64,000 nt of DNA from assembly GCA_016196125.1 (NCBI GenBank), contig JACPYG010000006.1, positions 54,511-118,510 of the forward strand, given 5' to 3'. Both the position numbers and the translations under genes were made by a program. This stretch comes from Candidatus Staskawiczbacteria bacterium (lineage in GTDB: Bacteria; Patescibacteriota; Minisyncoccia; Minisyncoccales; Staskawiczbacteraceae). The notes below the pieces were generated by a model, which saw only the letters and a list, made by a program, of their open reading frames with translations, was not told where the DNA came from and searched no databases. Below, one piece after another: positions 1-44,985 of the stretch (its first letter is position 1; each line of letters starts with the position of its first letter).

Positions 1-501
1 CCGATATGCTACGGGCAGTAAAATGTGGCTTTGCTTCGCGCGCGGCACTGGTATCTGCAAGTAGTATCGTTTTGCATCCCGCTTTTTTACCGGCTTCAAT
101 ATCAATCAGGCTATCGCCAATCATATAGGAATTTGGCAGGTCTATGTTTAGCTCTTTTGCGGCTTCAAGTATCAGACCCGGCTCTGGTTTGCGGCATGCG
201 CACATTTCTTTTATGTAATGCGGACAGACATAAATTTTATCAATGATGGCATTATTTTTTTCAAGCTCGGACTGCATATTGGCATGAATACTATTTACAT
301 CATCGGCTGTCATCAGCCCCTGTGATATGCCTCCCTGGTTTGACACTACTACGACTAAAAACTTTTTATTTAATTGACTGATCGTATCTGCGGCATGGGG
401 CAAAAACTCAAACTCGCCCCAATTTTTTATGTAATCATGTTCTTTGGCTTTTTTATTTATCACGCCATCCCTGTCTAAAAAAATAGCTCTTTTTTTAGTC
501 A
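1..501 (-). CDS. gmhB: HAD-IIIA phosphatase, D,D-heptose 1,7-bisphosphate phosphatase (GmhB)-like; 3' part runs off window
   Basis: Manual reverse translation from ATG at 501: MTKKRAIFLDRDGVINK... with DxDGV HAD motif I and a later GDS..D motif. It is not in the ORF track because it is open to the window edge. Confidence 0.65.
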
Positions 502-1622
502 TACCGGTTATTTTTTAAGATTTCTTTTAAAGATTGCGCAATAAATTTAACTTCTTGGTCAGTCATCCCATAAAAAATCGGCAAACAGAGATGATGGGCG
601 CTCAAATATTCTGTTTTTGGCAACTTTAAATCTTGGGCCCAAGGAAATACGGGCTGTTTATGCAGTGGCAACTCGTAAACATATCCGCTTGGCTGAATGC
701 CCCTTGCCTCTAATTCCTTATGAACAATACGGCGGTCATGGTCTTTTAAGATAATAATATATTTAAAATAGTTATGAATTGACTCTGACTCGGGTTTTAT
801 AATTTTTACGCTTAAAACTTCTTTTAATTCTTCGTCATAAAGCTTAGCAATCTCATTTCGTCTTTTAATAAAACTTTCGAGTGCCGACAACTGTCGTAAA
901 CCCATTAACGCAGCCACTTCTGGCATTCGCCAGTTATATCCCATGTATTTATGATAATTGATATAAATATCTTGCTTAACCTTGCCAAATTCTCGCATTG
1001 CTTTCATTTTTTCCACTAACATTTCGTCATTAGTAGTAACCATTCCTCCTTCACCTGTGGTCATGACTTTTGTAGAAAAAAAACTGAAACCTGCCGCGAC
1101 TCCAAAGGCGCCTGCTTTTGTCTTTCTTAAACTGGAACCATGAGCTTGGGCGGCATCCTCTATAAAATATAATCCGCGATCCTCGCAGATTTTTTTTAAC
1201 TTCAAAGTGCTTTCGGAAACAATCCCGCCGATATGAACCTGCATAATAGCTATGGTATTCTTTGTAATTCTTTTTATAACATCAAGGTCATCTAAACACA
1301 TATTATCCGCGCAGTCTGCAAATACAGGTATGCCTCCCGCATTCAAAATCGCATTAGCCGTAGCCATGAAAGTATTTGAAGGCAAGATAACTTCTTTGCC
1401 AGAAACATCTAAAGCCCGACAAATTAATTCCAGCGCAGAGGTACCGCTATTACAAGCTACTGCAAACTTTGTTCCAATAAATGCCGCGAACTCTTTTTCA
1501 AATTGAGCTACATATTGGCCATTAGATAAAAATGATTTTCCATGCAAAATATCTTGAAATTTTTCAATAATAAATGCAATATCATCTTCCGGAAAATAAG
1601 GTTTAGTGGCTGGAATTTTCAT
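495..1622 (-). CDS. DegT/DnrJ/EryC1/StrS-family PLP-dependent sugar aminotransferase
   Basis: 375 aa; the N-terminal FEKEFAAFIGTKFAVACNSGTSALE and the overall length are typical of sugar 3- or 4-aminotransferases. Confidence 0.85.
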   Translation of the reverse strand: MKIPATKPYFPEDDIAFIIEKFQDILHGKSFLSNGQYVAQFEKEFAAFIGTKFAVACNSGTSALELICRALDVSGKEVILPSNTFMATANAILNAGGIPVFADCADNMCLDDLDVIKRITKNTIAIMQVHIGGIVSESTLKLKKICEDRGLYFIEDAAQAHGSSLRKTKAGAFGVAAGFSFFSTKVMTTGEGGMVTTNDEMLVEKMKAMREFGKVKQDIYINYHKYMGYNWRMPEVAALMGLRQLSALESFIKRRNEIAKLYDEELKEVLSVKIIKPESESIHNYFKYIIILKDHDRRIVHKELEARGIQPSGYVYELPLHKQPVFPWAQDLKLPKTEYLSAHHLCLPIFYGMTDQEVKFIAQSLKEILKNNRYD

Positions 1623-2765
1623 TTATGCATAAAATTTTTTAATACTTTGACAAATAAATTCTATATTTTTATCAGTTAAGCTGGGAGCCGATGGCAAACA
1701 AACTCCGGTCTTAAATATTTCTTGGGTATTCGGAAAATCTCCTTTTGTATCGTAGGCAGGCATGGAGTGCATAGGCATAAACATATTTCGCACTCCGATC
1801 CCCAATGAAGCTAAATAAGCAATTAAATGTTTGGCGCTGGGAACAAAAATTACCACTCGATGAGGAACTATGGCGCCATCAGAATTAAATGTGAATAATC
1901 TTACACTGTTTATGCCAGAAAGCTTCTTTGAATAAGACCGTAAAATTTCTTTTTTTCTTTTAACAAAATAAGCCGCTTTTTTAAGTTGAGCCACTCCGAC
2001 GGCGGCTTGCAACTCTGTTATCCTGAAATTGTAACCTTTATATTCAATAACGTCCACCCCTCGCTCGCGGCGTCCGTCATGCTTATACATATTAACCTTA
2101 TTAATTAAAGCAATATTATTAGAAAGCAACATGCCTCCCTCACCCGTGGTTATAGTTTTATCGGCAAAAAATGATAGTACGGAAAAATCTCCATAAGACG
2201 CAATTGGCCTGTTTTTATAACTTCCAAATAACGCGGGAGCGCAATCATTAATTAAAAATATTTTTTGGGATTTAGCGTAAGATGCCATGGCATCTAAATC
2301 CGATACATTACCATAAGCGCAAACATATAAAATGGCCTTGGTTTTTTTGGTTATTGCTTTTTTAATTGTTTGTTTAGTCAGACACATGGTGGCCGAGTCA
2401 ACATCAACAAACACTGGAATCGCGCCACTGTTAGAAATAGAATTGGGATCAGCGGAATGAGAAAAACTTGGGACAATAATTTCGTCCCCCTCTTTAATGC
2501 CTAATGCTTTCACACCTGAAATGAGCGCTGCTGTGGCATTAGCAAAGGCTACGGAATATTTTCTTTCACAAATTTTAGCTAAACGATTTTCAAACTCTCG
2601 CGTATATTTATTTTCCGATAACCAGTTGCGTTTTATTACATCTGTTACAAGACGCAATTCTTCCTTTCCAATCGATGGTTCATAACAAGGAATTGTTTCG
2701 CGAGCCACGCGATTTCTATAAGTTTCGTAAGATGTAACCACATCACTATGAGGGTGCTTTTTCAT
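1623..2765 (-). CDS. DegT/DnrJ/EryC1/StrS-family sugar aminotransferase (second paralog)
   Basis: 380 aa; FANATAALISGVKALG...SFSHSADPNS; the stop is adjacent to the start of the upstream gene. Confidence 0.85.
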   Translation of the reverse strand: MKKHPHSDVVTSYETYRNRVARETIPCYEPSIGKEELRLVTDVIKRNWLSENKYTREFENRLAKICERKYSVAFANATAALISGVKALGIKEGDEIIVPSFSHSADPNSISNSGAIPVFVDVDSATMCLTKQTIKKAITKKTKAILYVCAYGNVSDLDAMASYAKSQKIFLINDCAPALFGSYKNRPIASYGDFSVLSFFADKTITTGEGGMLLSNNIALINKVNMYKHDGRRERGVDVIEYKGYNFRITELQAAVGVAQLKKAAYFVKRKKEILRSYSKKLSGINSVRLFTFNSDGAIVPHRVVIFVPSAKHLIAYLASLGIGVRNMFMPMHSMPAYDTKGDFPNTQEIFKTGVCLPSAPSLTDKNIEFICQSIKKFYA

Positions 2766-3649
2766 GTTTTACCTAATGACATTAAATATTCGTTGAGAGT
2801 GATAGAAAAAGATGTGAATAAATCATTTTTTAAGTTATTTTTAACTTTTTGATTAGATAAAAACGGCAAAGTTTCACCCTCGGGTTTATTTTCTAAAAAA
2901 TTAACTTTCACCTTAAAAAATTTTGCGATATCTTCAGCCGTGTCTCTGGTAGAAATATAATCATCTCCTCCTAAGTTATAAATACCGGTAACCAAGTCAA
3001 AACTTCTTAAAATGATATTAACCGCATCTTTAATATAAATATATTGCAGTTTGCGTTCTCCCTTGCCCCATACGGTGAGAGAGTGATTTTTAAGACATTC
3101 TTCTGCAAAAGCCAAGATAACATTCGGATGCATTGCTTGTCCCGGTCCAAATACGGAACATAAACGAAATATAACAGTATTTGGATGAATTTTCAAGATA
3201 AATTGTTCAAAGAAAGATTTTGCTATGCCAAAATTATGTTTAGGCGCCAAAAGCGAATCTTCATCGTAATACTGGTGTGCCGCCAAACCGCTGTAAACAT
3301 ATGAAGAGCTAAGATAAATTAAACGACAATCTCTCATGCCTGCTAAAGCATTAAGCATATTTACCGTAGCAGAAAAATCTTCTTGAAAAGAATTTGATAA
3401 GTGGTCGCGATAGGCTAAAGCCGAATGTGTAGCGCAATGAATGATTACATCGGGCTTAAAATCAATGATTAGTTTGGAGGTTTTAGCCGCATCTTTCAAA
3501 TTGAGGCTTTGCACATTGCCAGAAACATCAGCCAATTTATCTATAGATAAACATTCTTCTGAATACTGCTTAACCATTTTAAAAATTTCTGACCCAATGT
3601 ATCCCAGTCCGCCCGTAATTAGTATTCTTTTTGTTGAAAGATGATCCAT
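2762..3649 (-). CDS. NAD-dependent epimerase/dehydratase (SDR) family protein
   Basis: ILITGGLGYIGSEI Rossmann motif; 295 aa. Confidence 0.8.
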   Translation of the reverse strand: MDHLSTKRILITGGLGYIGSEIFKMVKQYSEECLSIDKLADVSGNVQSLNLKDAAKTSKLIIDFKPDVIIHCATHSALAYRDHLSNSFQEDFSATVNMLNALAGMRDCRLIYLSSSYVYSGLAAHQYYDEDSLLAPKHNFGIAKSFFEQFILKIHPNTVIFRLCSVFGPGQAMHPNVILAFAEECLKNHSLTVWGKGERKLQYIYIKDAVNIILRSFDLVTGIYNLGGDDYISTRDTAEDIAKFFKVKVNFLENKPEGETLPFLSNQKVKNNLKNDLFTSFSITLNEYLMSLGKT

Positions 3650-3654
3650 AATTT

Positions 3655-4632
3655 TTAATGATCCAGCACAATAGAGCTTCCGCCTTCGGAAAACTTAAAA
3701 GAAACGTTTTTATATTCAGACAAAGCGTCCGTAATAGACTGGTGTTTTTCGGGCGGAGCTAACACCAAAAGAAACCCGCCGCCGCCGGCTCCCAAAATTT
3801 TTCCTCCGTACGCGCCAGCGGTCAGAACTTTTTGGTACATCTGATCAATGTGGGGACTAGAAATACCCGATGCTAATTCTTTTTTGAGCAACCAATTTTG
3901 GTGCAAGATGTTTCCCAGTTTTTCAAAATCCCCTTTTTCTAAAGCATTTTTAAAGACGGATACGTTATCTGACATCTTTTTCAAAAATTCAAATTTATTT
4001 GTAATATTTTGTTTTTGTTCCGACAAAATGAGATTAGCCGACCTTTCTTTGCCTGTAAAAAACATCAACAGGTGGTTTTGGAAATCTTCTTTTATGTTTG
4101 GCAACAGATTAATCGGCTCAACTGTAATTCTTCCGTCACAATTAAAATTAATCACATTCAAGCCGCCAAAAGCTGCTGCGTATTGGTCTTGTTTGCCGAT
4201 GGGAGCGCCATTTTTATCAATTTCAATTTCACAGGCTTCTTTTGCGATCATATCAGCCGATACATTATTTCCTAAAAAAGCATGCAAACTATGCAATAGT
4301 CCAACCGTAAAACTGCTTGATGAACCAAGCCCCAGTCCTGTTTTTTGAGCAGGAATATCGGCTAAAGAAGCGATGTCAACTCCTTCCTTAATGCCTAATT
4401 TTTCCAAGGACAATCTTACTAATGGGTGTTTTATTTGCGAACAATGATTTACCAATTCAATTTCGGAGTAACTTAACTTAATCATCTCGTCAAATCTCGG
4501 GTTTACGGTGACATAAAAATATTTATTAATTGAGGTGCTTAAAACTTTGCCCGGATAATGCCGGTAAAAATCTTCAAAGTCAGTTCCTCCGCCGACAAAG
4601 CTTATCCGTAATGGTGTTTTTGAAATAATCAT
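3655..4632 (-). CDS. hddA: GHMP-family sugar kinase, D-glycero-D-manno-heptose 7-phosphate kinase (HddA)-like
   Basis: PLRISFVGGGTDFEDFY N-terminus plus GHMP motif GLGLGSSSSF. Confidence 0.7.
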   Translation of the reverse strand: MIISKTPLRISFVGGGTDFEDFYRHYPGKVLSTSINKYFYVTVNPRFDEMIKLSYSEIELVNHCSQIKHPLVRLSLEKLGIKEGVDIASLADIPAQKTGLGLGSSSSFTVGLLHSLHAFLGNNVSADMIAKEACEIEIDKNGAPIGKQDQYAAAFGGLNVINFNCDGRITVEPINLLPNIKEDFQNHLLMFFTGKERSANLILSEQKQNITNKFEFLKKMSDNVSVFKNALEKGDFEKLGNILHQNWLLKKELASGISSPHIDQMYQKVLTAGAYGGKILGAGGGGFLLVLAPPEKHQSITDALSEYKNVSFKFSEGGSSIVLDH

Positions 4633-5318
4633 GATGATAAAACTTGGCTAAATATTTTCAACCGATCAAAGGTTCCAATATCATAAAACTTCTTGTCGGT
4701 AATATGAGCATAAAGTTCTTTTTTTTTAATCAAGATGGGCAACAATTCTTCTTCGAGTGAAAAAACAGAATTTTCAGGCACAAAGTTTAAAACGTCTTTT
4801 TGAAAAATATGGACTCCCGCTTCAACGCAATTTGATTGACCTTCATTCTTTTTATCATAATTTAACACTTCTCCCGTTTCTGAAACCTCAATATTGTTTA
4901 AAACTATTTTAGGACTGTTTTTAAAAACAACGGTCATTGCCAATTTTTTACTTTCGTTAAAATCAGCTACTACTAATTTGTAATCCATATGCAAAAAACT
5001 GTCGCCATAAATTACAAAAAATTTATTTTCCAAAAGTTTTTCAGCGTTTTTTAATGCCCCTCCCGTACCCAATGGTTCATTTTCTTTTGAATACTTAACA
5101 TGTATTCCTATTTTTTTTCCATTGCCAAAATACTTTTCTATTTTTTCTCCCAAATATCCTGTACATAAAATAAAATCCTCAAAACCATTTTTTTTAAACA
5201 TTTCTAATTGGTACTCCAAAAATGGCTTGCCATTAATTAAAACCATTGGTTTTGGCACTTTGTGGGTCAAAGGCCTTAACCTTGTTCCCAGTCCCCCGGC
5301 TAAAATAACGACTTGCAT
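4629..5318 (-). CDS. hddC: sugar-1-phosphate nucleotidyltransferase, heptose/mannose-1-phosphate guanylyltransferase (HddC)-like
   Basis: MQVVILAGGLGTRLRPLT...KPMV nucleotidyltransferase signature; 4-nt overlap with hddA. Confidence 0.7.
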   Translation of the reverse strand: MQVVILAGGLGTRLRPLTHKVPKPMVLINGKPFLEYQLEMFKKNGFEDFILCTGYLGEKIEKYFGNGKKIGIHVKYSKENEPLGTGGALKNAEKLLENKFFVIYGDSFLHMDYKLVVADFNESKKLAMTVVFKNSPKIVLNNIEVSETGEVLNYDKKNEGQSNCVEAGVHIFQKDVLNFVPENSVFSLEEELLPILIKKKELYAHITDKKFYDIGTFDRLKIFSQVLSS

Positions 5319-5322
5319 ATTT

Positions 5323-6264
5323 TTATTTATTACTTTTTTTGTACCACTGAATTGTTTTTTTTAGACCATCCTCAAAATTTTTTTTTGCCTCAAAATTAAA
5401 TTCTTTTTTGGCCCGTGATATATTTATAGAGCGTCTTGGCTGGCCGTCGGGTTTTGTTGTATTCCATTTAATTTCTCCCTTAAAATCCATCGATTTACAA
5501 ATTAATTCTGCCAAATCTTTAATAGAAATTTCTAAATCCGAACCCAGGTTGACCGGCTCTGACTTATCATAATTTTCGGCAGCCAACAAAATACCTTCTG
5601 CCGCATCCTTAACATATAAAAATCCCCGAGTGACATTACCTGTGCCCCAAACTTCAATATATTTTTTATCACCTTTTTTCGCTTCGTAAACTTTACGAAT
5701 AAGCGCCGCAATGACATGTGACGATTCTGGATTAAAATTATCACCCGGCCCGTATAAATTTAAAGGCAAAAGAAAAATTGAATTAAATCCATACTGCTGC
5801 CGATATGCCTGCGATTGGACTAAAAGCATTTTTTTTGCCAAGCCGTAAGGCGCATTAGTTTCTTCAGGATAACCGTTCCACAAATCTTCTTCGCGAAATG
5901 GCACGGGAGCATGTTTGGGATAGGCGCAAACAGTTCCAATGGCTACGAATTTTTTAACATTGGCCTGCCTTGCCGCCTCCATTAATTGGGTTCCCATTAT
6001 TAAATTATCGTAAAATAATTCTCCGGGTTTTTCCTGGTTAAAGCCGATTCCGCCAACCTTAGCTGCTAAGTGAATTACAATATCCTGGCCCACGACAGCT
6101 TTTTGGCAATCATCCCATTTTCTTAAATCTAATTCTTTCATAGTCGGCAAAAATAAATTTTCTTTTGGAACTTTCCTTTTTTCCAATAAATTATTAACTA
6201 CATGCCTGCCTAAAAATCCACTTGATCCAGTTATTAAAATTTTCTTTTTTTTAAAATCCAGCAT
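5323..6264 (-). CDS. fcl: GDP-L-fucose synthase family (GDP-4-keto-6-deoxy-mannose 3,5-epimerase/4-reductase)
   Basis: ILITGSSGFLGRHV ... YIEVWGTG...LYVKDAAEGI, typical of Fcl/WcaG. The start is trimmed to the internal ATG at 6264, just after the gmd stop. Confidence 0.8.
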   Translation of the reverse strand: MLDFKKKKILITGSSGFLGRHVVNNLLEKRKVPKENLFLPTMKELDLRKWDDCQKAVVGQDIVIHLAAKVGGIGFNQEKPGELFYDNLIMGTQLMEAARQANVKKFVAIGTVCAYPKHAPVPFREEDLWNGYPEETNAPYGLAKKMLLVQSQAYRQQYGFNSIFLLPLNLYGPGDNFNPESSHVIAALIRKVYEAKKGDKKYIEVWGTGNVTRGFLYVKDAAEGILLAAENYDKSEPVNLGSDLEISIKDLAELICKSMDFKGEIKWNTTKPDGQPRRSINISRAKKEFNFEAKKNFEDGLKKTIQWYKKSNK

Positions 6265-6266
6265 AT

Positions 6267-7319
6267 TTAATCTATTTTCCACCATTTATTTGGAAACTTT
6301 TCTTTCAAAATTTTATTGCCTTCACCGATTATATCTAAATGTAAATTTTTAAAATCGCTGTCTATCATGATTTTACACAAATCACTGCATGTTATTTTTG
6401 GCTGCCAACCAAGGCGTTCTTTTGCTTTGCTTGCATTCCCAATTAACGATTCTACTTCAGCTGGCCTAAAATATCGTTGGTCAATTTCCACATAATTTTT
6501 ATAATCACCCAGCCCCGCATAACTAAATGCCAATTCTAAAAATTCCCTAACCGAATGACTTTCTCCCGTAGCAACCACATAGTCATCTGGTTTTTCTTGA
6601 CAGAGCATCATGTGCATTGCTTCCACGTACTCTGGCGCAAAACCCCAATCTCTTTTGGCTTTTAAATTACCCAAATATAATTTTTTATCCAACCCAGCCC
6701 TTATTCTGGCAATACCCATGGTAATTTTCCTGGTAACAAATGTTTCTCCTCTTCGCGGAGATTCGTGATTGAAAAGCAGACCATTGCAGGCAAAAATTCC
6801 ATAAGCCTCGCGGTACAATCTGGTAATATCAAACGAAAATACTTTGGCCACCGCATACGGACTTCGCGGGTGAAAAAGCGATAATTCATTTTGCGGAGGA
6901 AGCGTTGAACCGAACATTTCGGAACTGGCAGCATTATAAAACTTTATATGGTTACCCGAATTTTTTATTGCCTCTAAAATTCTCAATGTGCCCAGCGCAT
7001 CGGTATTAGCCGTGTATTCGGGCATATCAAAACTGACCCTAACATGCGACTGGGCTCCCAAATGATAAATTTCATCGGGCTTAATTTGGTTGACTAATTT
7101 TTCAATGTTTCCGGTGTCAGTTAAATCTCCGTAGTGCAAAAAAAGCCTAGTGCCTCTGATGTGCGGATCTTGATACAGGTGGTCTATCCTTACGGTATTA
7201 AACGTGCTTGCTCTGCGGATAACGCCATGCACCTCATATTCGCGGGAAAGCAAAAACTCGGCAAGGTATGACCCATCCTGCCCGGTAATTCCAAAAATTA
7301 ACGCTTTTTTTGTATTCAT
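6267..7319 (-). CDS. gmd: GDP-mannose 4,6-dehydratase
   Basis: [21 protein letters not shown]...[11 protein letters not shown] is the canonical Gmd N-terminus. The start is trimmed to the ATG at 7319, which forms an ATGA overlap with the upstream stop. Confidence 0.9.
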
Positions 7320-8272
7320 AAAATTTCTCGCCAATAATTTAACAAATCTTCCATAGTTTTTTCAAATGGTATTTTGGGCTGCCAACCGGTTTGTTTGCCA
7401 AATTTCGCATTACTGCCAACTGTAACAGCAATATCTGAAGGCCGAATTCTTTTTAAATCCTGTTTTATTTTAATATTTTTCACCAAGCTTTTGCTAAGCA
7501 ACAGAGTCAAAACCGATTTTATTGATCTGGCTTTTCCGGAACATACATTATACGGCTCTCCAAATTCACATTTTTCTGAAGCCAACCAATAAGCCACCGC
7601 TACATCACGCACATCGGTAAAATCCCTCTGCGCATCTAAATTGCCTGCGAATATTACAGGTTTTTGCTTGCCTTTTTCAATTTGGGCAATCTGTTTGGCA
7701 AATGTGGAAGCAGCAAAATGCTCTCCTCGTCTTGGGCCCTCGGTATTGAAAAATCTCATTAAAACTATTTTAAGCCCGTAGTTTTGATAATATTGGAAAG
7801 CTAATTTTTCTTGAGTAATTTTGGAAACCGCATAAGGCGATAGCGGCCTTAATTCATTATTCTCTTTGATGGGCAATTCATTTTTTAATGCTGCGCCATA
7901 TTCTTCCGAACTGCCCGCAATCACTATTACTGGATTTATCTTTATATTTTTGATCGCTTCGAAAAGATTTACATCAGAAACAATGTTATTAAACAATGTT
8001 TTTTCCGGCGACTGGAAGGAAAAAGAAACCTGGCTTTGGCCAGCCAAATGAAAAATTTTATCTGGTTTTACCTTTAAAATAACTTTTCTTACTTGTTCTT
8101 TTTTGGTAAGATCGCATAATAAAAATTCAATATTATTCTTAATATGCTCTAAGTTTTTTAATCCTTTTTTGTCTAAAAAAGTGCCATATAATTCAACATT
8201 GGGTTTGGTCATGCAATATTCAGACAAATGCGAACCGACAAACCCGGTTATCCCGGTAATTAATATTTTCAT
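7316..8272 (-). CDS. NAD-dependent epimerase/dehydratase, GDP-4-keto-6-deoxymannose reductase (Rmd)-like
   Basis: [16 protein letters not shown]; SDR located directly upstream of gmd. Confidence 0.7.
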
Positions 8273-15854: not shown

Positions 15855-15930
15855 CGTAATAGAGGCCAGTTTCTATCTTTTTCCAAAAAAATTGGAGGCT
15901 TTATAGCCCATTTAGTATTGATAAATTTAG

Positions 15931-17832: not shown

Positions 17833-17836
17833 AATA

Positions 17837-28818: not shown

Positions 28819-28819
28819 A

Positions 28820-31585: not shown

Positions 31586-31595
31586 ATTTTTGTAT

Positions 31596-31844
31596 TTACC
31601 ATTTTTTAATAGCATTTTTAACCCTTTCCTTGATTGTTAAATAAACTCTGTCTCCTTTTCCCATGGTTTCCGGAGAAACTAATCTTAAAATTTCTCTTCC
31701 CCAAATTCTATATTGACCGCTAACTTTATAGGTGTTGATAATACCGCCTTTAATCATTCTCTTCATTGTGCTTTCGCTAATTTTTAAAAAATCGCGAGCT
31801 TCTTTCGGAGTATATATTTTACCCGGTTTAATTTCGTCTGTCAT
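31596..31844 (-). CDS. small helix-turn-helix DNA-binding protein (excisionase/MerR-like HTH_17)
   Basis: 82 aa; YTPKEARDFLKISESTMKRMIKGGII is an HTH motif. Confidence 0.6.
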   Translation of the reverse strand: MTDEIKPGKIYTPKEARDFLKISESTMKRMIKGGIINTYKVSGQYRIWGREILRLVSPETMGKGDRVYLTIKERVKNAIKKW

Positions 31845-32842: not shown

Positions 32843-32898
32843 AAAATGTTAGAACGAAATGAATAATATTTTATTGGCGAACAAGCGACTAAAATATG

Positions 32899-33786: not shown

Positions 33787-33789
33787 TTT

Positions 33790-36436: not shown

Positions 36437-36463
36437 TTATTTTTTAATTTTTAGCAAAAACTA

Positions 36464-37383: not shown

Positions 37384-37824
37384 CTACTTAATATTAACTT
37401 TGCCTAATAATTCAGATGAACTTTGGACTTTATTCCCGCCTACATTATTAACCACCTTTATATTGAATTTTTCACATACCAATCTCTCTGATTCCGGGAT
37501 ATTATCTATGTTCCTGTCTCCGCCCTTGGCAAAATACAATTCTCCTATGGATTTTTTGGCTATAAATTCTAAAGATTTGGCAACAGTAATATCCTTATCT
37601 ATGGAAAGAAATACCTCGTCGACATAATTTAAAACCTTTATTATCTCAACTCTTTCTTTTTCTGACATAAACGGCACACTCCCCTTGACTTTTACCTGCT
37701 TATCGTTATTTACAATAACAACCAAAAAATCACCGAGTTTTTTGGCTTCCCTTATCAAGTTAATATGACCGATGTGCATTGGATTAAAAAATCCGGATGT
37801 AATTACTATTTTTTTAGCCTCCAT
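37384..37824 (-). CDS. cytidylyl/adenylyltransferase family protein (HldE domain II / TagD-like nucleotidyltransferase)
   Basis: VITSGFFNPMHIGHINLI (HxGH motif); 146 aa. Confidence 0.75.
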   Translation of the reverse strand: MEAKKIVITSGFFNPMHIGHINLIREAKKLGDFLVVIVNNDKQVKVKGSVPFMSEKERVEIIKVLNYVDEVFLSIDKDITVAKSLEFIAKKSIGELYFAKGGDRNIDNIPESERLVCEKFNIKVVNNVGGNKVQSSSELLGKVNIK

Positions 37825-37921
37825 ATATGGTTAAATTTACTATATTTTCGGTTTTTTTACAAGGCATTATTTATGTTAAAAATCTGTTTAATTCATTATC
37901 TTTATGATACGATACAGTTGA

Positions 37922-40543
37922 ATGAATATGAAAATAAACAACAACATAAACCAAGTGCTATTTTTTGGAGTTTGCTTTATTTTATTTTTACCCATCATAG
38001 TCCTTCCGCCAGACTTCCAGCCCTCCGACTGGACAAGGTCAATATTGTTTAGAATTATTATAACCGCACTTGTTTCTTTTTTATTTTTTAAATTTTTCTA
38101 TAAAAAAAGTATCTCCATAGAGTTACCGGCATGGAACAAATCTCTTTACCTGCCAATGCTCATCCTATCGGTATTTTTTATCACTTTAATCATAGCAACC
38201 ATATTTTCACAGGATATTTCATTTAGTATTTTCGGATCTCCGCTTCGCGCTGGCGGAGTGTTGAATTTACTGTTTTTCTTTATTTTTTCTATTATTTTAG
38301 CCCTTTTTATAGATAAAAATCACTGGGAAAAATTATTTAATATATTGTTTATTACAGGAGGCATAACATCATTGTTGGCCATTATACAATATTTTAACCT
38401 TCTAAAAAATATTTTTATTTCTTACGAAGAGGGTTCAACCCCTTCCTTTCTTGGAAACTCCACCGTATTGGCAATTTATATGCTTTTTCTGACTTTTTTG
38501 GCTTTTGTTTTTTTTATTCAAAAACAAAAAAGGAGAGAAAAATTATTGTATGGAGCATTATTTCTTTTATTTATTTTCACTATTTTTATCACTGGTTCAA
38601 GAGCGGCGTACCTTGGATTATTAGCCGGATTTTTATACTTTTTCTTCTTTTATCCGGCTACAAACGAAATACAAGCGCAATCAACGGAAAAATCCGGCAA
38701 ATGGCATTACTTAAAACTAAAAACTCTAAAAATAATTGCCGCTTCTTTTTTGATATTAGCCATTATTACAGTTTTATTCTTCAATTTTTTTCCCCAATTT
38801 GGGGAAAAAAATAGCTTCTTTAAAATACTGACAAGCCGCTTATCCATAGAAAAAATTGCGATGGATATTTTGGGAACAAGGCTTCCGGTATGGAAAATGA
38901 CATTAGAAGCGATAAAAGACAGGCCTCTTTTGGGATGGGGTCCCGAAAATTTTTATATTGGTTTTGAAAAATATTATGACCCCACACCATTCAGCCATCC
39001 GGTACTATTGTGGGACAGGCCCCACAACATAATTTTGGATATTGCCGTAAGTTCTGGCATATTTTCTTTGTTGATTTATTTGTTTTTTTGGATTTCTCTT
39101 TTTTGGCAATTGCAAAAAATAAAACACATTGAAAAAAATGCCGATTATTACGATGAAAATATACTAAAAACGCATGGAGTTCAATCTATGTTTATTGGTT
39201 ATTTAATAGTGCTTTTTTTTAATTTTGACAGTTTTGCGTCATATTTAATTTCTTTCTTTTTCATTGGTTATTCTTTTTATTTAATTTCTAACCGAGAAAA
39301 AAGATTAATTATTTTGCCTCTTCGTAATGTTTTTTTTAGAAAAAAATTATTGGTTTTTATTTGTTTTACAATGGTAATTATATTTCTATGGTTTTGGAAT
39401 ATAAAACCCTTATATCTTGGTGAAAAAATCACCCATGCTAAAAATTTATCCAGTGAGAGACGTTGCAAAAAAGCTTTTGATATATCAAATGGCGAAAACT
39501 GGGAAAAATCCGGTGTTTTAAGACCTTACGCCATTTTAATGTATTCCGATATTGTAAAAAGTTGCGCTTTTACGGAGCCTGAAAAAGAAGTTGAATATTC
39601 AAAAAAAGTGGTTTCTTTGCTGAAAATAGCGGCAGATGCCAAACCAAAATTTTCAAGAATCTGGCTTTTTATGGGCAGTTTTACAAATGTATTGGCGGCA
39701 AGAGAAGAAAATCCAGACAATAAAAATACGCTGATTAAAGAAGCAATAGAAAACCTCCAAAAATCTCTTCAATTAAGCCCCGGGCGACAGGAATCGTTAG
39801 CAGAAACAGAAAAAAGCCATTTAATAGCGCAGGACTATTCTGCAATGAAAAAGACGGGCGAAGATTGCATTGCGATAGACCCGCGATTTGGCGAGTGTTA
39901 TTGGTATTTAGGCCTTGCGCAAATATTTTTAAATGAACAAGAAGAAGGTAAACAAAATATAGACTTGGCAATTGCCAATGGCTATAATTATAATCCTATA
40001 TATAAGCAATTGGCTGTCGCTTATATGAGCCAAAAAAATTGGAAAGAGGCGGTTTTGGCCTATGAAAAACTCCGTCCAGCCAACGATACATCTGCCGCCG
40101 CCAGCTACTTTGCCACCCTTGCTTTTTTATACGATAAGGCCGGGAACTATGAAAAAGCCGGGTTAACCGCAATTGAAGTTTTTAAGCTTCAGCCTGAAAA
40201 TCCAGAAACCTTGCCATTCATAAAGTTATTGCTTGGCAAAAGGCCTAATAATCCAATTTTAAACTCATCATTGGCTTTCATTTACTTTAAACCAGGCCCA
40301 AAACAAGAGCTTTCCAAGGCTCGTGCCATTTATCTTCAATTATTAAGTAACGACCCCAACAATACTGAGTATCTTTCATACCTCATTTTAATCCACCACC
40401 AACTAAAAGAGCACGAGATGACCTATTTAAGAGCTGTCCAATTGATACGGTTAAATCCCCCGTCAAAAATAGGGATGGAAGAATTAATAAAAACACTGCC
40501 TTCTGGGTATTGGGAACGGTATTTACGCGAAACTCAACAATAG
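37922..40543 (+). CDS. O-antigen ligase-like (Wzy_C) polytopic membrane protein with C-terminal TPR repeats; candidate oligosaccharyltransferase/polymerase
   Basis: N-terminal ~450 aa are polytopic with a GSRAAYLGLL motif and a conserved RPHNI His region, typical of Wzy_C. The C-terminal ~350 aa are TPR-like. The gene is convergent with the glycan supercluster. Confidence 0.75.
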   Translation: MNMKINNNINQVLFFGVCFILFLPIIVLPPDFQPSDWTRSILFRIIITALVSFLFFKFFYKKSISIELPAWNKSLYLPMLILSVFFITLIIATIFSQDISFSIFGSPLRAGGVLNLLFFFIFSIILALFIDKNHWEKLFNILFITGGITSLLAIIQYFNLLKNIFISYEEGSTPSFLGNSTVLAIYMLFLTFLAFVFFIQKQKRREKLLYGALFLLFIFTIFITGSRAAYLGLLAGFLYFFFFYPATNEIQAQSTEKSGKWHYLKLKTLKIIAASFLILAIITVLFFNFFPQFGEKNSFFKILTSRLSIEKIAMDILGTRLPVWKMTLEAIKDRPLLGWGPENFYIGFEKYYDPTPFSHPVLLWDRPHNIILDIAVSSGIFSLLIYLFFWISLFWQLQKIKHIEKNADYYDENILKTHGVQSMFIGYLIVLFFNFDSFASYLISFFFIGYSFYLISNREKRLIILPLRNVFFRKKLLVFICFTMVIIFLWFWNIKPLYLGEKITHAKNLSSERRCKKAFDISNGENWEKSGVLRPYAILMYSDIVKSCAFTEPEKEVEYSKKVVSLLKIAADAKPKFSRIWLFMGSFTNVLAAREENPDNKNTLIKEAIENLQKSLQLSPGRQESLAETEKSHLIAQDYSAMKKTGEDCIAIDPRFGECYWYLGLAQIFLNEQEEGKQNIDLAIANGYNYNPIYKQLAVAYMSQKNWKEAVLAYEKLRPANDTSAAASYFATLAFLYDKAGNYEKAGLTAIEVFKLQPENPETLPFIKLLLGKRPNNPILNSSLAFIYFKPGPKQELSKARAIYLQLLSNDPNNTEYLSYLILIHHQLKEHEMTYLRAVQLIRLNPPSKIGMEELIKTLPSGYWERYLRETQQ

Positions 40544-40621: not shown

Positions 40622-40657
40622 TAAGCAAGAATTTAAGCAAGAACGGTTCTTGCTTAG
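40622..40657. repeat. REP-like hairpin (TAAGCAAGAACGGTTCTTGCTTA, plus partial tandem half-copy) flanking the transposase 3' end
   Basis: Read directly: aagcaagaac/gttcttgctt palindrome; a second copy lies at 41366-41400. Confidence 0.7.
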
Positions 40658-41337
40658 GGTTGGACATCATCCCTAATAAAATAATCATCCACAAAATCTT
40701 TAAATGATTGATTGTCTCGAAAATAATCAGGGAAATTTTCTTGACTAATTATATTCTTTTCTATCCTATCTCTCCTAATATAATCTAAATAACTGGAATA
40801 TGGATATACTGCTAAGAATTTTTTCATATCATTTGGCGCTTTTTTAATTTCATCTTTCCAACCAGGAAATTCTATATCCAGAGAATTAATATGAATGTAT
40901 CCGAATAATTGCCTCATGTAATTATCATCATCTCTAATTAATTTTGATTTGAATAAGCCACCAAATAAAGATCCGCTTCTTTGGTACTTAATATTAAAAA
41001 ACATTGAGTACCCTACACCTACCTTTCTCATAAATCTTGTAATACCGCCATCTATTTCTTGTTTAATCAATAAATGAAAGTGATTTGGCATAAGACACCA
41101 TGCGCCAATGGATATAAGCGGTTCTCCTTTTTCCAATATCAAAATCTGATTGAATGTTTTATGCTGTTGATTTATTAGATTATCAAGACGGAAAAATTGT
41201 TCATTAGAGTTTGAAACATATAAAAGCATTATGAAACGCTCGTAATCTTTTTTTGATTTAAAAATAATACGTTTATCTATGCCACGATTGTATATATGAT
41301 AATACTCGCCGGTAATAAATGGGTCTTTACGTAACAT
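40654..41337 (-). mobile_element. IS200/IS605-like Y1 (HUH) transposase, REP-associated tyrosine transposase (RAYT)-like
   Basis: HIYNRG ... LMPNHFHLLI (HuH motif) ... C-terminal Tyr region; flanked on both sides by identical hairpins. Confidence 0.75.
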
Positions 41338-41365
41338 ATTTATAGTATACTAACTAACCAACAAC

Positions 41366-41400
41366 TAAGCAAGAACGGTTCTTGCTTAAACTTGCTTGAC
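41366..41400. repeat. REP-like hairpin copy 2 (TAAGCAAGAACGGTTCTTGCTTAAA plus partial CTTGCTTGAC)
   Basis: Identical core to the hairpin at 40636-40657. Confidence 0.7.
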
Positions 41401-41410
41401 TATATCCAAC

Positions 41411-41440
41411 TAAAAAGCCCCTTTCGGGGCTTTTTGGTTT
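41411..41440 (-). terminator. rho-independent (bidirectional) terminator AAAAAGCCCCTTTCGGGGCTTTTTGG downstream of the surface-protein gene
   Basis: GC stem GCCCC/GGGGC with TTTC loop, flanked by A-run and T-run. Confidence 0.75.
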
Positions 41441-41508: not shown

Positions 41509-44500
41509 CTATCTTGTCCAGGTTTCAGAGGACAATGAATCTTTTACAAGATAACTGTTTGTCCAGTCAGCAGTAGCAGTTGATCCGCTCGTTGCAGCAG
41601 TATGAGCTATTGCTGAATTATCTGACCATATCAAGTCTGCATCTTCTGCCGAAGCGCTTGCTGTGGCAGAGGTGAATAACTTAATAATACCAGTCAACGA
41701 TGTACCAACATTCAGGTAGCCAATAAAGTCAACTGAAGTACTGCCGAATGTTACATCTGCAGTATCCGGGCTAAACGATATGGCAACGCTGTCTGCGGCT
41801 GTGTCGGTGGCGCCATCTAATCTAAACTCTTGAGGAACTCCATTAAGAGTGTAAGTAGTAGAAGTTCCAGCGATAATCACATCTTCTGTAGAGCCATCCC
41901 AAGTTACAATAATCTTGCTGTTAAGTTCGCTTACTCCGTCAGTGCTTTCTAAGCTGGTTGCAGTATCTTCATCCACAATACTTACAGAGGCGGTGATATC
42001 AACGCCGTCTTTGTAGAACTTAAACGACTCCAACTCCAGTTCGTCATCTGTTCCTCCATCAGACCATGCTACATCAAATTTAAGCTGTTTAACACTAATA
42101 TCGCCCGCTACTGGAGCGGCAACTTTCATGCTATACAAATCCAAGACCTGACCATTAGCAATAGTGCCTGAATTATCTAACTCAACCTTTGAAAGAGTTG
42201 GAACTGACCTATAAACATAAGTGCTGTTTCCGTCTCTTTCTGTGGTGCTTGTTGATACGGTTCCTTGTTCATCCATGTATTCAACAAATGACAGGGCTGG
42301 GACTATTCTCAATCCCGATGTGCCATTTGTGGCTGATGGAACAGCCAAGGTTGCTTTGGCAGTCAAGGTTTTTGATGTGCCTGCAGGAACTGCAACGTTC
42401 AAACCAGTGAAATAATAACCGCCAGTAGAACCATTGGTATCAATGGCGTTAAAGCTTTGCGCTGTACCAACCTGAACACTGCCATCCCACAGCGTTAAGC
42501 TGGAAATAGCATCTTCAGCATTGTCTGTTGCAGTAGAAGCAACATCTGGGTCAATTTTGACTTCTGTCAAAGTAAATGGCCTGTAATCAGCGGAGAATTT
42601 CCATCTTCCAATCTCAACCTCTTGATTTCCAGAAACCGTCTGGTTTTGAGGTGTGCCGATAAATGCAGTTGTAAGAGCGCCCGTAGTGTATGTTAATGCC
42701 TGACCGGTAACTTCTGCCGAATTGGCCGCAACAGCTGAAGAAACAGTAGTGCTGTCAATATCCAATACAACTGTTCCCGTGCCGGTTGTCATACCGCTGG
42801 CAACGTCCATATACACTTCTACAGGAATGGTTACTCCTGCGGCAAGTGTGTAGTTAATTGACCATGCGTTTGCAGCGGCAACGGTTGGCTTTACCGATGT
42901 CATCTGTGTTCCGTACTTTACATACAAGTTTGTTGCATATGTGCTTACTTCGTCAACGGCAACATTGATAGTTGAAATATTAACTGCCTCTGATGTGCTT
43001 GGAACTAAGTTGTAATCAGCAACTTTGTAAGCAAACAAAGGAGCAACAACTGAATGGGCTGCGTAAGCAGGGTCTAACGACAATGACAATGTGCCTTGGG
43101 CAACTGTCAAAGTATTAGCGCTTATATCGCCTGAAGGCACATCAAGTGTAGTTGAAGAAACTAAACCTGTAGCATTGTTGTTGGTGCTGGCTCCTTCAAT
43201 TGTAACTTGAATAGTGCTGCCCGAAACAATGCTGTTTGTGCTGTCTGAAGTGCCTGTGTCGTAAATATCGGCCCTTACCGTCAATATTACAGGGCTTCCC
43301 GGTTCAACTATCAAAGATGAACCCAAGTTAAATGTGGTGTAGTCAAAGCTTGAATCTGCCGGGTCATAAAGAGTGGTTGTGCTTCCAATTTGAACTCCAT
43401 TGGCGTAAATTGCTCCATTTCTTAATCCGCTAACGCCTGATGTGTTAACATTTGCAGAAATATAAAGAGTTTCAATCTTTACTTTCTCGCCAGCGGCTTT
43501 TAATTCAAATTTTGCCAATAAAGCGTTTGATGCGGCATCAACAATATCTCCCGATGGAGAATCCGACATCTTTGTAATTGTCAGAGTTCCGGAATTTATT
43601 GTTTGCGCGCCTGTTGACCTCTTGGTAAATGACGCGTCTGAAATTAAGTCAGACAATACATTTGCCATATATTGACTGTCAACAACGGTAACATCGGCTA
43701 CATTCCACAGGTGCATTGTGAAGTTCAAGCTTGAACCGCCAATAATGTCGGCTAAAACTTTAACAACTCTTGTTCCGGCTTCCAACCTTTTTGGAGTTCC
43801 GGTTAAGTCAAAAGTTACATAGCTTTGGTCTAAGCTGTCTGCCATTAATTGCTGTGTTGAACCAACTTGTATTCCGTCAACATATAGTTTGAAATTTTTT
43901 AAATCTGTGTTAGAAACGCTTCCGGTTTTCCTGAAGCTGATTCTTGTCATATCAACCGCCCTTGTAGTAACAATTACGCTGTTTTGGAAAACAGTGTAAC
44001 CGTCTTGAGGGTCAACATCAGCCGCCGCAGGGGTTGTTGTGGCATTCCACTCCACTCCTGCTAATGTTCCGGTTGCTATTGTCATTAAGTTTCCTGTAAT
44101 AGGATATGTTCCTTTTACAGAACTGGCGTTTGTTGTGACACTGGACATTGAAACAACTTGCATTCCAACTGTTTCTCCAGATGTGCCATTAACATCAGAC
44201 AATACAGAGATTGTCATAGAACCCATTGAAGGCACTGTGAACAATCCTGAAGTATTATTGAAGTTAATCATGGTTTCTGAAACAGCTGACCCATCGGTTA
44301 ATCTTACGGCTCCATTAAACAAATAGACATTGGTCAAAGAAGCGTCGGCTGAAACACCAATTCTCTTTAACTTTAATCCTGTAACCTTTACCGGAGCATT
44401 GTCTCCGTTTGTAAAGGTTAATTTTGCCAATGAGGCTAATGCCTGACCGTCAACAATTGTTCCTGTGGCTGGGTTGTCAGAAGCCAACATTACTGTAAGC

Positions 44501-44985
44501 CCTGCTCCGGTTGGAACTGGTGTTGGGGTTGGTATTGGAGTTTGAGTTGGTGAGCTGGCTAACCATGAATTTAATAAACCTCTTGTTAAAGGACCAACCT
44601 GGTTTGCAGGTATCCATCCTTGCGCGGCCTGTAATGCCCTGACCTTTGCTAAGGTCAAAGGACCAAAGTACATGGTTTCATTTCCAGGCGAACCTGCTCC
44701 TGTTATTGCAAGCTGGTATCCATGGGAATTCATAAGTGTTTGCATACACTTTACGTCTTGCCCGGTAGAACCAACCGTCAAATTCCTTGTAAATGTGACT
44801 CCAACGCAATTTGCAGACGTGCCACCAGTTGTCTGTTGGCCTTGCAATGCGGCTAGTTGAGCCATCAAGGCATTAATCTGAGCTTGCAAATCTGACAAAA
44901 GGTCAGCTGAAGCTATTCCAGGAGCAATCGTTGCAACCATAGTCAAAGCGACTGTGGCTGATATGATTGTTTTTCTTATATTCAT
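41509..44985 (-). CDS. large secreted cell-surface protein (signal peptide, coiled-coil, PG_binding_1-like domain, long Thr/Ser/Gly/Ala/Val-rich beta-rich region); S-layer/surface-array candidate
   Basis: The N-terminus MNIRKTIISATVALTMVATIAPGIASA is signal-like. LTVGSTGQDVKCMQTLMNSHGY...FGPLTLAKVRALQAAQG matches the peptidoglycan-binding motif. The remaining ~950 aa are low-complexity T/S/G/A/V-rich. No LPXTG or SLH motif was seen. Confidence 0.7.
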   Translation of the reverse strand: MNIRKTIISATVALTMVATIAPGIASADLLSDLQAQINALMAQLAALQGQQTTGGTSANCVGVTFTRNLTVGSTGQDVKCMQTLMNSHGYQLAITGAGSPGNETMYFGPLTLAKVRALQAAQGWIPANQVGPLTRGLLNSWLASSPTQTPIPTPTPVPTGAGLTVMLASDNPATGTIVDGQALASLAKLTFTNGDNAPVKVTGLKLKRIGVSADASLTNVYLFNGAVRLTDGSAVSETMINFNNTSGLFTVPSMGSMTISVLSDVNGTSGETVGMQVVSMSSVTTNASSVKGTYPITGNLMTIATGTLAGVEWNATTTPAAADVDPQDGYTVFQNSVIVTTRAVDMTRISFRKTGSVSNTDLKNFKLYVDGIQVGSTQQLMADSLDQSYVTFDLTGTPKRLEAGTRVVKVLADIIGGSSLNFTMHLWNVADVTVVDSQYMANVLSDLISDASFTKRSTGAQTINSGTLTITKMSDSPSGDIVDAASNALLAKFELKAAGEKVKIETLYISANVNTSGVSGLRNGAIYANGVQIGSTTTLYDPADSSFDYTTFNLGSSLIVEPGSPVILTVRADIYDTGTSDSTNSIVSGSTIQVTIEGASTNNNATGLVSSTTLDVPSGDISANTLTVAQGTLSLSLDPAYAAHSVVAPLFAYKVADYNLVPSTSEAVNISTINVAVDEVSTYATNLYVKYGTQMTSVKPTVAAANAWSINYTLAAGVTIPVEVYMDVASGMTTGTGTVVLDIDSTTVSSAVAANSAEVTGQALTYTTGALTTAFIGTPQNQTVSGNQEVEIGRWKFSADYRPFTLTEVKIDPDVASTATDNAEDAISSLTLWDGSVQVGTAQSFNAIDTNGSTGGYYFTGLNVAVPAGTSKTLTAKATLAVPSATNGTSGLRIVPALSFVEYMDEQGTVSTSTTERDGNSTYVYRSVPTLSKVELDNSGTIANGQVLDLYSMKVAAPVAGDISVKQLKFDVAWSDGGTDDELELESFKFYKDGVDITASVSIVDEDTATSLESTDGVSELNSKIIVTWDGSTEDVIIAGTSTTYTLNGVPQEFRLDGATDTAADSVAISFSPDTADVTFGSTSVDFIGYLNVGTSLTGIIKLFTSATASASAEDADLIWSDNSAIAHTAATSGSTATADWTNSYLVKDSLSSETWTR

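Follow-up and report, generated by a model that had tools for sequence, protein, structure and literature searches.

Candidatus Staskawiczbacteria (Parcubacteria), tiny and uncultured inhabitants of groundwater, belong to the candidate phyla radiation (CPR, or Patescibacteria), and the 64,000-nt stretch of their DNA analysed here (contig JACPYG010000006.1, positions 54,511-118,510; hereafter the window) carries what we read as a surface-glycoconjugate cassette of a monoderm bacterium. The cassette consists of a long island of glycan biosynthesis genes, an 873-amino-acid (aa) membrane protein combining a Wzy_C domain with tetratricopeptide repeats (TPR), hereafter the ligase, and a 1158-aa Ser/Thr-rich surface protein. 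The models and the predicted topology strongly support the view that the 873-aa protein is an outward-acting transferase of the WaaL fold. It is likewise well supported that the island supplies complex glycans flipped by Wzx, probably as unpolymerised units. The 1158-aa protein is the most likely glycan acceptor, a proposal that we hold with middling confidence and that draws on gene neighbourhood and analogy.

How the CPR envelope is built is still called unclear (PMC5220378), and CPR bacteria make up a large share of bacterial diversity. The cassette offers concrete candidates, in at least 27 species-level genomes, for a major wall-anchored surface protein, the enzyme decorating it and a variable glycan island that would make surface chemistry differ from lineage to lineage. 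No account of such a cassette in CPR turned up in literature searches.

A preliminary description of the window, made from the nucleotide sequence alone, had proposed a protein O-glycosylation system in a CPR-like organism. The host was guessed correctly: the 1158-aa protein is identical (100%) to GenBank 'hypothetical protein HY005_01425' of a Candidatus Staskawiczbacteria metagenome-assembled genome (MAG), and a partial 'O-antigen ligase family protein', likewise from a Candidatus Staskawiczbacteria MAG, matches a second window protein at 100% identity. The window is low in GC (29-43%) and nearly all of its genes lie on the minus strand. Families were assigned by Pfam and NCBIfam profile searches.

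The Wzy_C-TPR ligase and its neighbourhood

The ligase is encoded by a plus-strand open reading frame (ORF) of 873 codons at 37922-40543. Pfam Wzy_C matches aa 213-387 with 81.1 bits (cut-off 31.7, E-value 9.5e-23) and is covered from position 2 to 149 of 149; the motifs GSRAAYLGLL and DRPHN lie at aa 225-234 and 365-369. TPR families match at aa ~600-835, and the only other Pfam-A family returned by a scan at E ≤ 0.01 was TgpA_N. The protein divides into two parts:

37922..39412, plus strand: ligase membrane domain (aa 1-497), 13 predicted transmembrane (TM) helices, WaaL fold
39413..40543, plus strand: ligase C-terminal domain (aa 498-873), all-alpha TPR superhelix, predicted to be extracytoplasmic (Pfam, AlphaFold2, Foldseek, PDB profile)

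Hydropathy, the helices of the AlphaFold2 model and the positive-inside rule together give 13 TM helices with the N-terminus and the K/R-rich loops 200-207 and 456-475 inside. The loop of aa 288-369 (nt 38783-39028), which bears R320, W324, GWGPEN and DRPH368N, is placed outside, and R227 sits at the outer end of TM7/8. Helix 13 (aa ~475-497) leads to the ~375-aa TPR superhelix outside. This domain carries four invariant cysteines (C515, C548, C649 and C659) which, together with the topology rules, suggest that it is extracytoplasmic and disulfide-stabilised.

The AlphaFold2 model, built from a 56-sequence alignment (predicted local distance difference test score, pLDDT, 89; predicted template modelling score, pTM, 0.82; TPR domain pLDDT about 90), adopts the polytopic fold typical of WaaL, in which a large external loop of helices follows TM9. 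Foldseek matched the C-terminal part to the TPR domains of OGT and SPY. When a profile of the N-terminal 500 aa was compared with PDB sequences, WaaL, the closest solved structure, was the only match; phmmer with the same 500 aa found nothing among PDB sequences, so that WaaL is reached by profiles only. Residues R227 (GSRAAYLG), R320 (GTRLxxW) and H368 (DRPHN) align with R191, R265 and H313 of WaaL (7tpg_B) and are invariant in 56 homologues. The same Arg/Arg/His set is conserved as R215/R288/H338 in E. coli WaaL and R224/R298/H349 in N. meningitidis PglL (PMC3643930). The O-antigen-ligase motif, the His loop and the TPR half that the preliminary description had read in this protein are thus all borne out, and the catalytic loop holds up in profile search, topology and structural comparison with WaaL alike.

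More than 230 homologues of 850-880 aa share the two-part architecture; all come from Patescibacteria and bear generic annotation only. A large homology search with the N-terminal profile returned the same CPR family again, with no characterised or non-CPR enzyme and no sequence bridge to WsfB, PglL or TacL. The annotation at source, 'putative inorganic carbon transporter' (IctB family), was rejected, as TIGR00947 scored 45 bits against a cut-off of 366.

To follow the cassette through other genomes, we scanned one genome per species (GTDB), obtained 570 ligase relatives and kept 79 loci, whose ORFs were called and compared by BLAST with the window proteins only. Staskawicz-, Nealson-, Wildermuth- and Portnoybacteria, as well as unclassified Patescibacteria, share one block with the window: variable glycan genes, 146-aa nucleotidyltransferase, ligase, ~1150-aa Ser/Thr-rich protein, DUF5667 protein, extracytoplasmic function (ECF) sigma factor and helix-turn-helix (HTH) protein. 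Thirty-three of the loci extend at least 4.5 kb on both sides, and 27 of these encode a homologue of the 1158-aa protein no more than four genes from the ligase. Restricting the count to ligases of 30% identity or more leaves 27 loci, of which 25 have the homologue within that distance and the other two within seven genes. No Wzz, Wzy or lipid A genes take the place of the surface protein in related loci, as they might have done had the preliminary description been wrong on this point. In three loci (L052, L066 and L078) the genes have been rearranged to a co-directional order and the ligase and surface-protein genes are adjacent still, which argues against pure gene-order inertia. Two full-length tandem Wzy_C-TPR paralogues adjoin the surface-protein gene in six loci (L003, L033, L035, L066, L069 and L078), whereas the window has one ligase and two Wzx flippases.

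The pair persists (46-68% identity for the ligase, 50-75% for the surface protein) while the adjoining glycan genes are replaced, overall 0-2 of about 10 of them being shared. In L004, for example, the ligase is 52% and the surface protein 75% identical, and one of ten upstream genes is shared at 40% identity or more; the corresponding counts are 1/9 in L014, 1/12 in L016 and 2/10 in L015, and only the closest locus, L002, shares most. Conservation of the ligase beside a changing island points to relaxed donor specificity, as in a ligase or oligosaccharyltransferase (OTase), rather than to a repeat-unit-specific polymerase.

Some Wzy_C-domain proteins, such as TuaE and some Wzy, are polymerases; the window holds no other Wzy candidate, and the ligase heads a Wzx-containing glycan locus. 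Even so, we consider it very improbable that the ligase joins flipped repeat units into a capsule or exopolysaccharide. Polymerases are specific to their repeat unit and normally vary from locus to locus, whereas the ligase has kept its identity amid near-total replacement of glycan genes; moreover, the window encodes no Wzz or other polysaccharide co-polymerase (PCP), and the ligase closely matches WaaL in fold, in its Arg/Arg/His constellation and in the long helical loop outside the membrane.

Three considerations favour the surface protein as the acceptor. The enzyme and the protein stay adjacent across loci; the predicted extracellular TPR module is akin to those of the S-layer O-OTase WsfB, of PglL and, in trans, WsaA (PMC2943079); and genes for O-OTases commonly lie beside their targets (PMC3643930).

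The surface protein, its operon and the intervening insertion

The region between the island and the end of the surface-protein operon is laid out as follows:

37825..37921, no strand: divergent spacer between glycan array and ligase gene, 97 bp, weak promoter-like sites on both strands
40635..41387, minus strand: RAYT/IS200-like insertion with a 227-aa gene at 40654-41337 (Pfam Y1_Tnp, NCBIfam REP_Tyr_transpos)
41408..41439, no strand: GC-rich hairpin with a 14-bp stem directly downstream of the surface-protein gene, likely terminator (sequence)
41509..44985, minus strand: candidate acceptor and putative major surface protein, 1158 aa (Pfam, composition, AlphaFold2, Foldseek)
45136..47427, minus strand: upstream genes of the surface-protein operon, encoding a DUF5667 membrane protein (putative anti-sigma factor), an ECF sigma factor and a 240-aa HTH protein (Pfam)

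The preliminary description of the 1158-aa product as a secreted, peptidoglycan-binding, Thr/Ser-rich and beta-rich protein agrees with our results. A Sec-type signal peptide (aa 1-27; ASA↓D cleavage after residue 27, judged by eye) is followed by a coiled coil (29-49), a PG_binding_1 domain (60-142), a Pro/Thr linker (145-159) and ~1000 aa of tandem beta-sandwich domains. The PG_binding_1 match is at threshold (23.1 bits, cut-off 23.0) and is recorded for many homologues too. Ser and Thr together account for 25% of the mature part, which is acidic and Cys-free, and for 10% of the other window proteins; Lys amounts to 3% of the protein, against 10% in the others. The gene forms a GC peak (0.43, against 0.31-0.38 around it), which its Ala/Gly/Thr-rich, Lys-poor composition explains without any need for a foreign origin.

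The AlphaFold2 model (pLDDT 83.8) is all-beta, a string of beta-sandwich domains, for which Foldseek retrieved only generic arrays of immunoglobulin-like domains (alpha-2-macroglobulins, integrins, AgI/II); no S-layer protein was among the matches, and no homology to known S-layer proteins was seen. The family comprises 745 homologues of uniform length (1120-1215 aa). Its linker (aa 145-159 here) is disordered and hypervariable, and consists of (PT)n or poly-Thr in many homologues, which makes it a candidate for holding glycosylation sites. The Bacteroidota sequon D(S/T)(A/I/L/V/M/T) occurs eight times in the 1158-aa protein, a count that has no baseline, for a motif that nothing leads one to expect in this organism. 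Alongside the ligase and the surface protein, the DUF5667 gene is conserved in 31 related loci, the ECF sigma gene in 26 and the HTH gene in 24.

Since the glycan array is transcribed leftward from 37,824, the ligase gene is divergent from the first array gene, head-to-head across the 97-bp spacer, and not convergent on the end of the array as had been proposed; it is convergent instead with the surface-protein operon (HTH, ECF sigma, DUF5667 and 1158-aa genes). This separate transcription could be taken to favour a general protein O-OTase acting mainly on other exported proteins, for instance type IV pilins or a range of lipoproteins and surface proteins; its location would reflect a shared 'envelope' neighbourhood and not a dedicated pairing of enzyme and substrate. 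PglL-type enzymes are indeed often general and not always found beside their targets (PMC3643930), and type IV pili are well conserved in CPR (PMC11623550). However, adjacency to the 1158-aa family is very consistent, and neither the window nor, as far as was noticed, the flanks of the ligase in the 79 loci hold a pilin-like gene, a weak negative since those loci were compared with window proteins only. We regard a general enzyme as improbable.

The mobile gene noted earlier between the ligase and surface-protein genes is confirmed as a 227-aa RAYT/IS200-like gene. It is flanked by the 21-nt palindrome AAGCAAGAACCGTTCTTGCTT at 40635-40655 and 41367-41387 (four strand-matches, 0.02 expected), and, being bracketed by the two copies, looks like an insertion between the two genes. 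RAYT homologues also lie beside the ligase or surface-protein gene in six other genomes (L001, with 87% identity, L023, L026, L029, L032 and L037); the same spot appears to have been hit repeatedly.

The glycan island

The island comprises 37 minus-strand ORFs of at least 80 aa at positions 2-37,824. It had been described as an unbroken array of about 38 genes spanning 37 kb; the gene number and the span within the window hold, whereas the array is broken by a 179-aa plus-strand ORF in a 667-bp gap, and the length is a lower bound. Contig JACOTX010000046.1 (L080), whose overlap with the start of the window is exact, extends 9.3 kb leftward, bringing the total examined to 73 kb, and the island continues with further glycan genes for at least this distance. 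Within the window its features are:

2..8272, minus strand: distal sugar-nucleotide block, with a HAD phosphatase (partial, GmhB-like), two DegT aminotransferases, a short-chain dehydrogenase/reductase (SDR), a GHMP kinase (HddA-like), a nucleotidyltransferase (HddC/ManC-like), a GDP-fucose-synthase-like protein, a GDP-mannose 4,6-dehydratase (Gmd) and a further SDR (Pfam, NCBIfam)
8286..14989, minus strand: glycosyltransferase (GT)/methyltransferase block, with two GT4, a 282-aa protein of unknown family, an FkbM methyltransferase and an 888-aa fusion (Pfam)
14982..19586, minus strand: CDP/dTDP-deoxyhexose block, with RmlD reductase, sugar C-methyltransferase, 4,6-dehydratase and glucose-1-phosphate cytidylyltransferase-like protein (Pfam, NCBIfam)
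17293..17832, plus strand: the sole plus-strand ORF within the array, 179 aa, uncertain status, in the 667-bp gap
19588..22408, minus strand: 438-aa 'surface carbohydrate biosynthesis'-like protein (TIGR04396, sub-threshold) and Wzx flippase no. 1 (Polysacc_synt)
22419..31615, minus strand: pseudaminic-acid cassette, with WbuX amidotransferase, HisF-like/WbuZ-like and HisH-like proteins, CMP-sugar synthetase, FolD, formyltransferase, DUF218 protein, PseI, methyltransferase, PseC and PseB (Pfam, NCBIfam)
31596..31844, minus strand: 82-aa HTH_17 (excisionase/MamR-like) DNA-binding protein, just upstream of pseB (Pfam, NCBIfam)
31907..37378, minus strand: proximal block, with SDR epimerase/dehydratase, GT2, GT4, Wzx no. 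2 (483 aa) and class I methyltransferase (Pfam, hydropathy)
37384..37824, minus strand: first array gene, 146-aa HxGH nucleotidyltransferase, RfaE-domain-II/TagD-like (Pfam CTP_transf_like, 68 bits)

At least three nucleotide sugars had been predicted, and blocks for pseudaminic acid, a GDP-sugar and a CDP/dTDP-deoxysugar are recovered by Pfam and NCBIfam. PseB (483 bits, cut-off 408), PseC (492, cut-off 423) and PseI (478, cut-off 340) exceed their NCBIfam equivalog cut-offs, as does WbuX its own (345, cut-off 203). The CTP_transf_3 enzyme of the cassette is a PseF candidate by Pfam, and no clear PseH or PseG was found in the island by Pfam or NCBIfam. WbuX with the HisH-like and HisF-like proteins, and the formyltransferase, suggest that acetamidino and N-formyl groups replace N-acetyl. 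The presence of FolD (methylene-tetrahydrofolate (THF) dehydrogenase/cyclohydrolase) and a truncated formyltransferase inside the cassette (25750-27092) would fit an N-formylated nonulosonic acid with a locus-private supply of formyl-THF in an organism of minimal metabolism. Homologues of the nonulosonic-acid synthase occur in 15 of the 79 loci.

In the GDP-sugar block Gmd is bona fide (NCBIfam, 496.8 bits, cut-off 415), and the HddA-like, HddC-like and HAD enzymes suggest a route to a heptose or 6-deoxy-heptose. RmlD of the third block scores above its NCBIfam cut-off (262.8 bits against 224) and the G1P_cyt_trans match below (278.5 against 300.25). The plus-strand ORF lying within that block has no Pfam or NCBIfam match and no homologue among the 79 loci; its product looks protein-like, with a Nudix-like stretch by eye.

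Glycosyltransferases, methyltransferases and two Wzx had likewise been seen at the outset, and the island totals four Glycos_transf_1 (GT4) and two Glycos_transf_2 (GT2) proteins, one of the latter being the 888-aa fusion, which joins GT2 to an FkbM methyltransferase and to a second methyltransferase domain (Pfam). There are four further methyltransferases, three extra DegT aminotransferases, and two Polysacc_synt (Wzx) proteins, the first of 500 aa with 11 hydrophobic segments. By hydropathy the two Wzx are the only polytopic membrane proteins of the island within the window. Counterparts of the proximal block, 53-83% identical, are confined to the two closest loci, L002 and L013. The 82-aa HTH_17 gene has homologues in 18 of the 79 loci at 50-77% identity, even amid differing glycan genes, and may encode a dedicated regulator of the island. 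The 146-aa nucleotidyltransferase is a conserved neighbour of the ligase in 26 related loci, with every NCBIfam match below the equivalog cut-off.

The leftward extension adds a GT2, a GT10-like (fucosyltransferase-like) protein, another DegT, a split transketolase pair, an SDR, a GT4 and a 468-aa polytopic protein. This last (L080 9664-11070, ~7.4-8.8 kb left of the window) has a (PQPTI)x5 repeat and a sub-threshold PMT_2/PMT match (22.3 bits, cut-off 26.1); it could be a GT-C-type enzyme adding sugars outside the membrane, or even an alternative protein O-glycosyltransferase. No ABC transporter (Wzm/Wzt) was found in the window or L080, and no Wzy, Wzz/PCP or LCP ligase in the window and its 9.3-kb extension. 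The absence of a separate Wzy and Wzz from the 73 kb fits the transfer of unpolymerised units.

The remainder of the window contains an MGDG-synthase-like GT (53475-54596) and a GT2 (52746-53441), about 9-13 kb from the ligase region. Family scans found no lpx, kds or waa genes within the 64 kb, and Rfam and tRNA scans of the window gave no matches. An FtsZ ORF (57397-58317, 306 aa), with FtsA immediately upstream, stops directly past FtsZ_C and seemingly lacks the usual C-terminal linker and FtsA-binding tail.

These gene contents bear on the strongest rival explanation, in which a TacL/WaaL-like ligase places the flipped glycan on a glycolipid or other glycan acceptor, giving a coat resembling lipoteichoic acid (LTA) or a secondary wall polymer, and the surface protein is a non-covalent partner, held to the wall, for example, by PG_binding_1 or by the polymer. 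Genes for S-layer proteins do adjoin genes for anchoring wall polymers, as csaB with sap/eag in Bacillus anthracis. The closest solved structure and sole PDB sequence match of the ligase is a lipid-acceptor ligase, WaaL; a conserved TagD/RfaE-like nucleotidyltransferase, albeit below all equivalog cut-offs, flanks the ligase in 26 loci; and the MGDG-synthase-like GT and the GT2 lie in the same window. In the monoderm S. pneumoniae, TacL ligates teichoic acid linked to undecaprenyl diphosphate (Und-PP) to a glycolipid (PMC5727136). Against this, the hydropathy of the island reveals no polymerase or chain-length regulator, adjacency to one protein family persists after rearrangement, and the surface protein already owns a peptidoglycan-binding anchor. 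To our knowledge neither WaaL nor TacL carries a TPR domain of ~375 aa, and the Wzy_C proteins that have been described with TPR motifs are the protein O-OTases WsfB and PglL (PMC2943079). On balance a lipid or glycan acceptor seems somewhat unlikely; should the acceptor prove to be a lipid, no LTA-like ligation system would have been proposed for CPR before this one.

The proposed pathway and comparison with known systems

In the pathway that we favour, with the surface protein as acceptor, the activated sugars made by the island would be a derivative of CMP-pseudaminic acid, substituted with acetamidino and/or formyl; a 6-deoxy sugar or heptose activated with GDP; a deoxyhexose that is C-methylated and linked to CDP or dTDP; and amino sugars. 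Six glycosyltransferases and the methyltransferases would assemble one or two oligosaccharides on polyprenyl-diphosphate at the inner membrane face, and the two Wzx would flip them outward. The 873-aa enzyme, with its outward Arg227/Arg320/His368 site, would then transfer the glycan en bloc to Ser/Thr of the peptidoglycan-anchored, S-layer-like 1158-aa protein, the ~375-aa outward TPR superhelix serving as a protein-docking module. The analysis itself shows the enzyme families, the fold, the catalytic residues, the predicted topology, the conserved synteny of the three parts and the turnover of glycan genes; the lipid carrier, its priming enzyme, en-bloc transfer, the acceptor and the formation of a surface layer by the 1158-aa protein are inferred.

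Several observations weigh against this pathway. PglL_A (PF15864), the motif that separates PglL from WaaL, has no match on the ligase, and a priming phosphoglycosyltransferase of the Bac_transf or WecA type was not found in the 64-kb window and the 9.3 kb leftward. Synteny across one CPR class could be partly inherited order, or could reflect non-covalent co-function, for example with a wall polymer anchoring the protein. TPR domains occur in polysaccharide-export machines too, and S-layer and beta-rich surface proteins are typically rich in Ser/Thr, glycosylated or otherwise. In some homologues the linker is Gly/Val/Pro-rich, not Thr-rich. Finally, a distant subfamily of ~745-aa Wzy_C-TPR proteins (24-28% identity; L059, L071, L074, L070 and L073) is found near secA and not beside the 1150-aa protein; in Giovannonibacteria it adjoins ~340-aa proteins with two PG_binding_1 domains.

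Because the ligase has the hallmarks of the Wzy_C/WaaL-PglL superfamily and gives no match to the PglL motif, we place the cassette in the known kind 'Wzy_C-type ligase/O-OTase with its glycan locus', in a new phylum, and not as PglL. The protein O-glycosylation reading of the preliminary description fares accordingly: the conserved pairing of ligase and surface protein, the outward TPR domain and the turnover of glycan genes fit it, whereas the PglL model is not matched, no priming enzyme was found in 73 kb, and a TacL-like enzyme is a rival.

A broader proposal, which we offer tentatively and would sooner doubt than believe, is that across Parcubacteria/Paceibacteria the ~1150-aa peptidoglycan-anchored beta-sandwich protein is the CPR surface-layer subunit, O-glycosylated by a dedicated 13-TM enzyme of the WaaL fold that recognises it via an extracellular, disulfide-braced TPR domain, with donors from a hypervariable, often nonulosonic-acid-containing island at a fixed site. 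If true, this phylum-scale 'serotype' system would govern host attachment and phage recognition in episymbiotic ultra-small bacteria. For the engineering of bioconjugates, too, a glycan-promiscuous O-OTase that brings its own protein-docking domain would be attractive.

Among characterised relatives of the ligase, WaaL of Cupriavidus metallidurans (7TPG/7TPJ) differs in having 12 TM helices, no TPR and a lipid A-core acceptor, and the two are only 13% identical; Parcubacteria are reported to lack lipid A and lipopolysaccharide genes (PMC5220378). Nearer in envelope type is TacL, the LTA ligase of Streptococcus pneumoniae, likewise a Wzy_C enzyme of a monoderm, which ligates a Wzx-type-flipped, Und-PP-linked glycopolymer on the outer face (PMC5727136). 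Its acceptor, however, is a glycolipid, and a link to teichoic acid genes (choline, ribitol-phosphate pathways) is not seen here, nor was a polyol-phosphate transferase. TacL is also not known to carry a TPR domain.

PglL, TfpO (PilO) and PglS of Gram-negative bacteria share with the ligase the Wzy_C core, the conserved Arg/Arg/His and a gene often beside the target (PMC3643930, PMC9829042), in 21 of 31 cases for PglL-type OTases (PMC3643930). They transfer glycans en bloc from Und-PP with relaxed glycan specificity, and the ligase may by analogy do the same. It differs in having no PglL_A match, twice the size, a 13th TM helix and the long TPR superhelix, and it belongs to a monoderm CPR bacterium, where the candidate target is not a pilin but a wall protein of 1158 aa with multiple domains. 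A formylated pseudaminic-acid glycan is carried by the pilin of P. aeruginosa 1244.

The S-layer proteins TfsA/TfsB of Tannerella forsythia are O-glycosylated with an oligosaccharide capped by a modified nonulosonic acid (pseudaminic or legionaminic acid), the species-specific part of which is encoded in one locus (PMC6120980). There the host is a diderm of the Bacteroidota, with the D(S/T)(A/I/L/V/M/T) sequon and other gene content and envelope.

In function and architecture, the cassette seems by analogy most like the slg loci of Firmicutes (Paenibacillus alvei, Geobacillus stearothermophilus), S-layer glycosylation loci that use Wzy_C O-OTases (WsfB, WsaB; PMC2943079). It differs from them in exporting through two Wzx flippases instead of a Wzm/Wzt ABC transporter, in that a WsaP/WsfP-type (WbaP-like) priming enzyme was not found, and in a candidate acceptor anchored by PG_binding_1 and not by S-layer homology (SLH) domains. 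Particular to the cassette are also the predicted glycan with a pseudaminic-acid derivative and a surface-protein operon preceded by ECF sigma and DUF5667 genes. The likenesses extend over most of the layout: a monoderm host; a long one-directional cluster of sugar-nucleotide, GT and methyltransferase genes, with a TagD-like cytidylyltransferase among them and strain-specific central glycan genes; an OTase gene transcribed alone; a Wzy_C enzyme described together with TPR, C-terminal in WsfB and on the separate protein WsaA in Geobacillus; and, in Geobacillus, an S-layer structural gene close to the slg cluster (PMC2943079).

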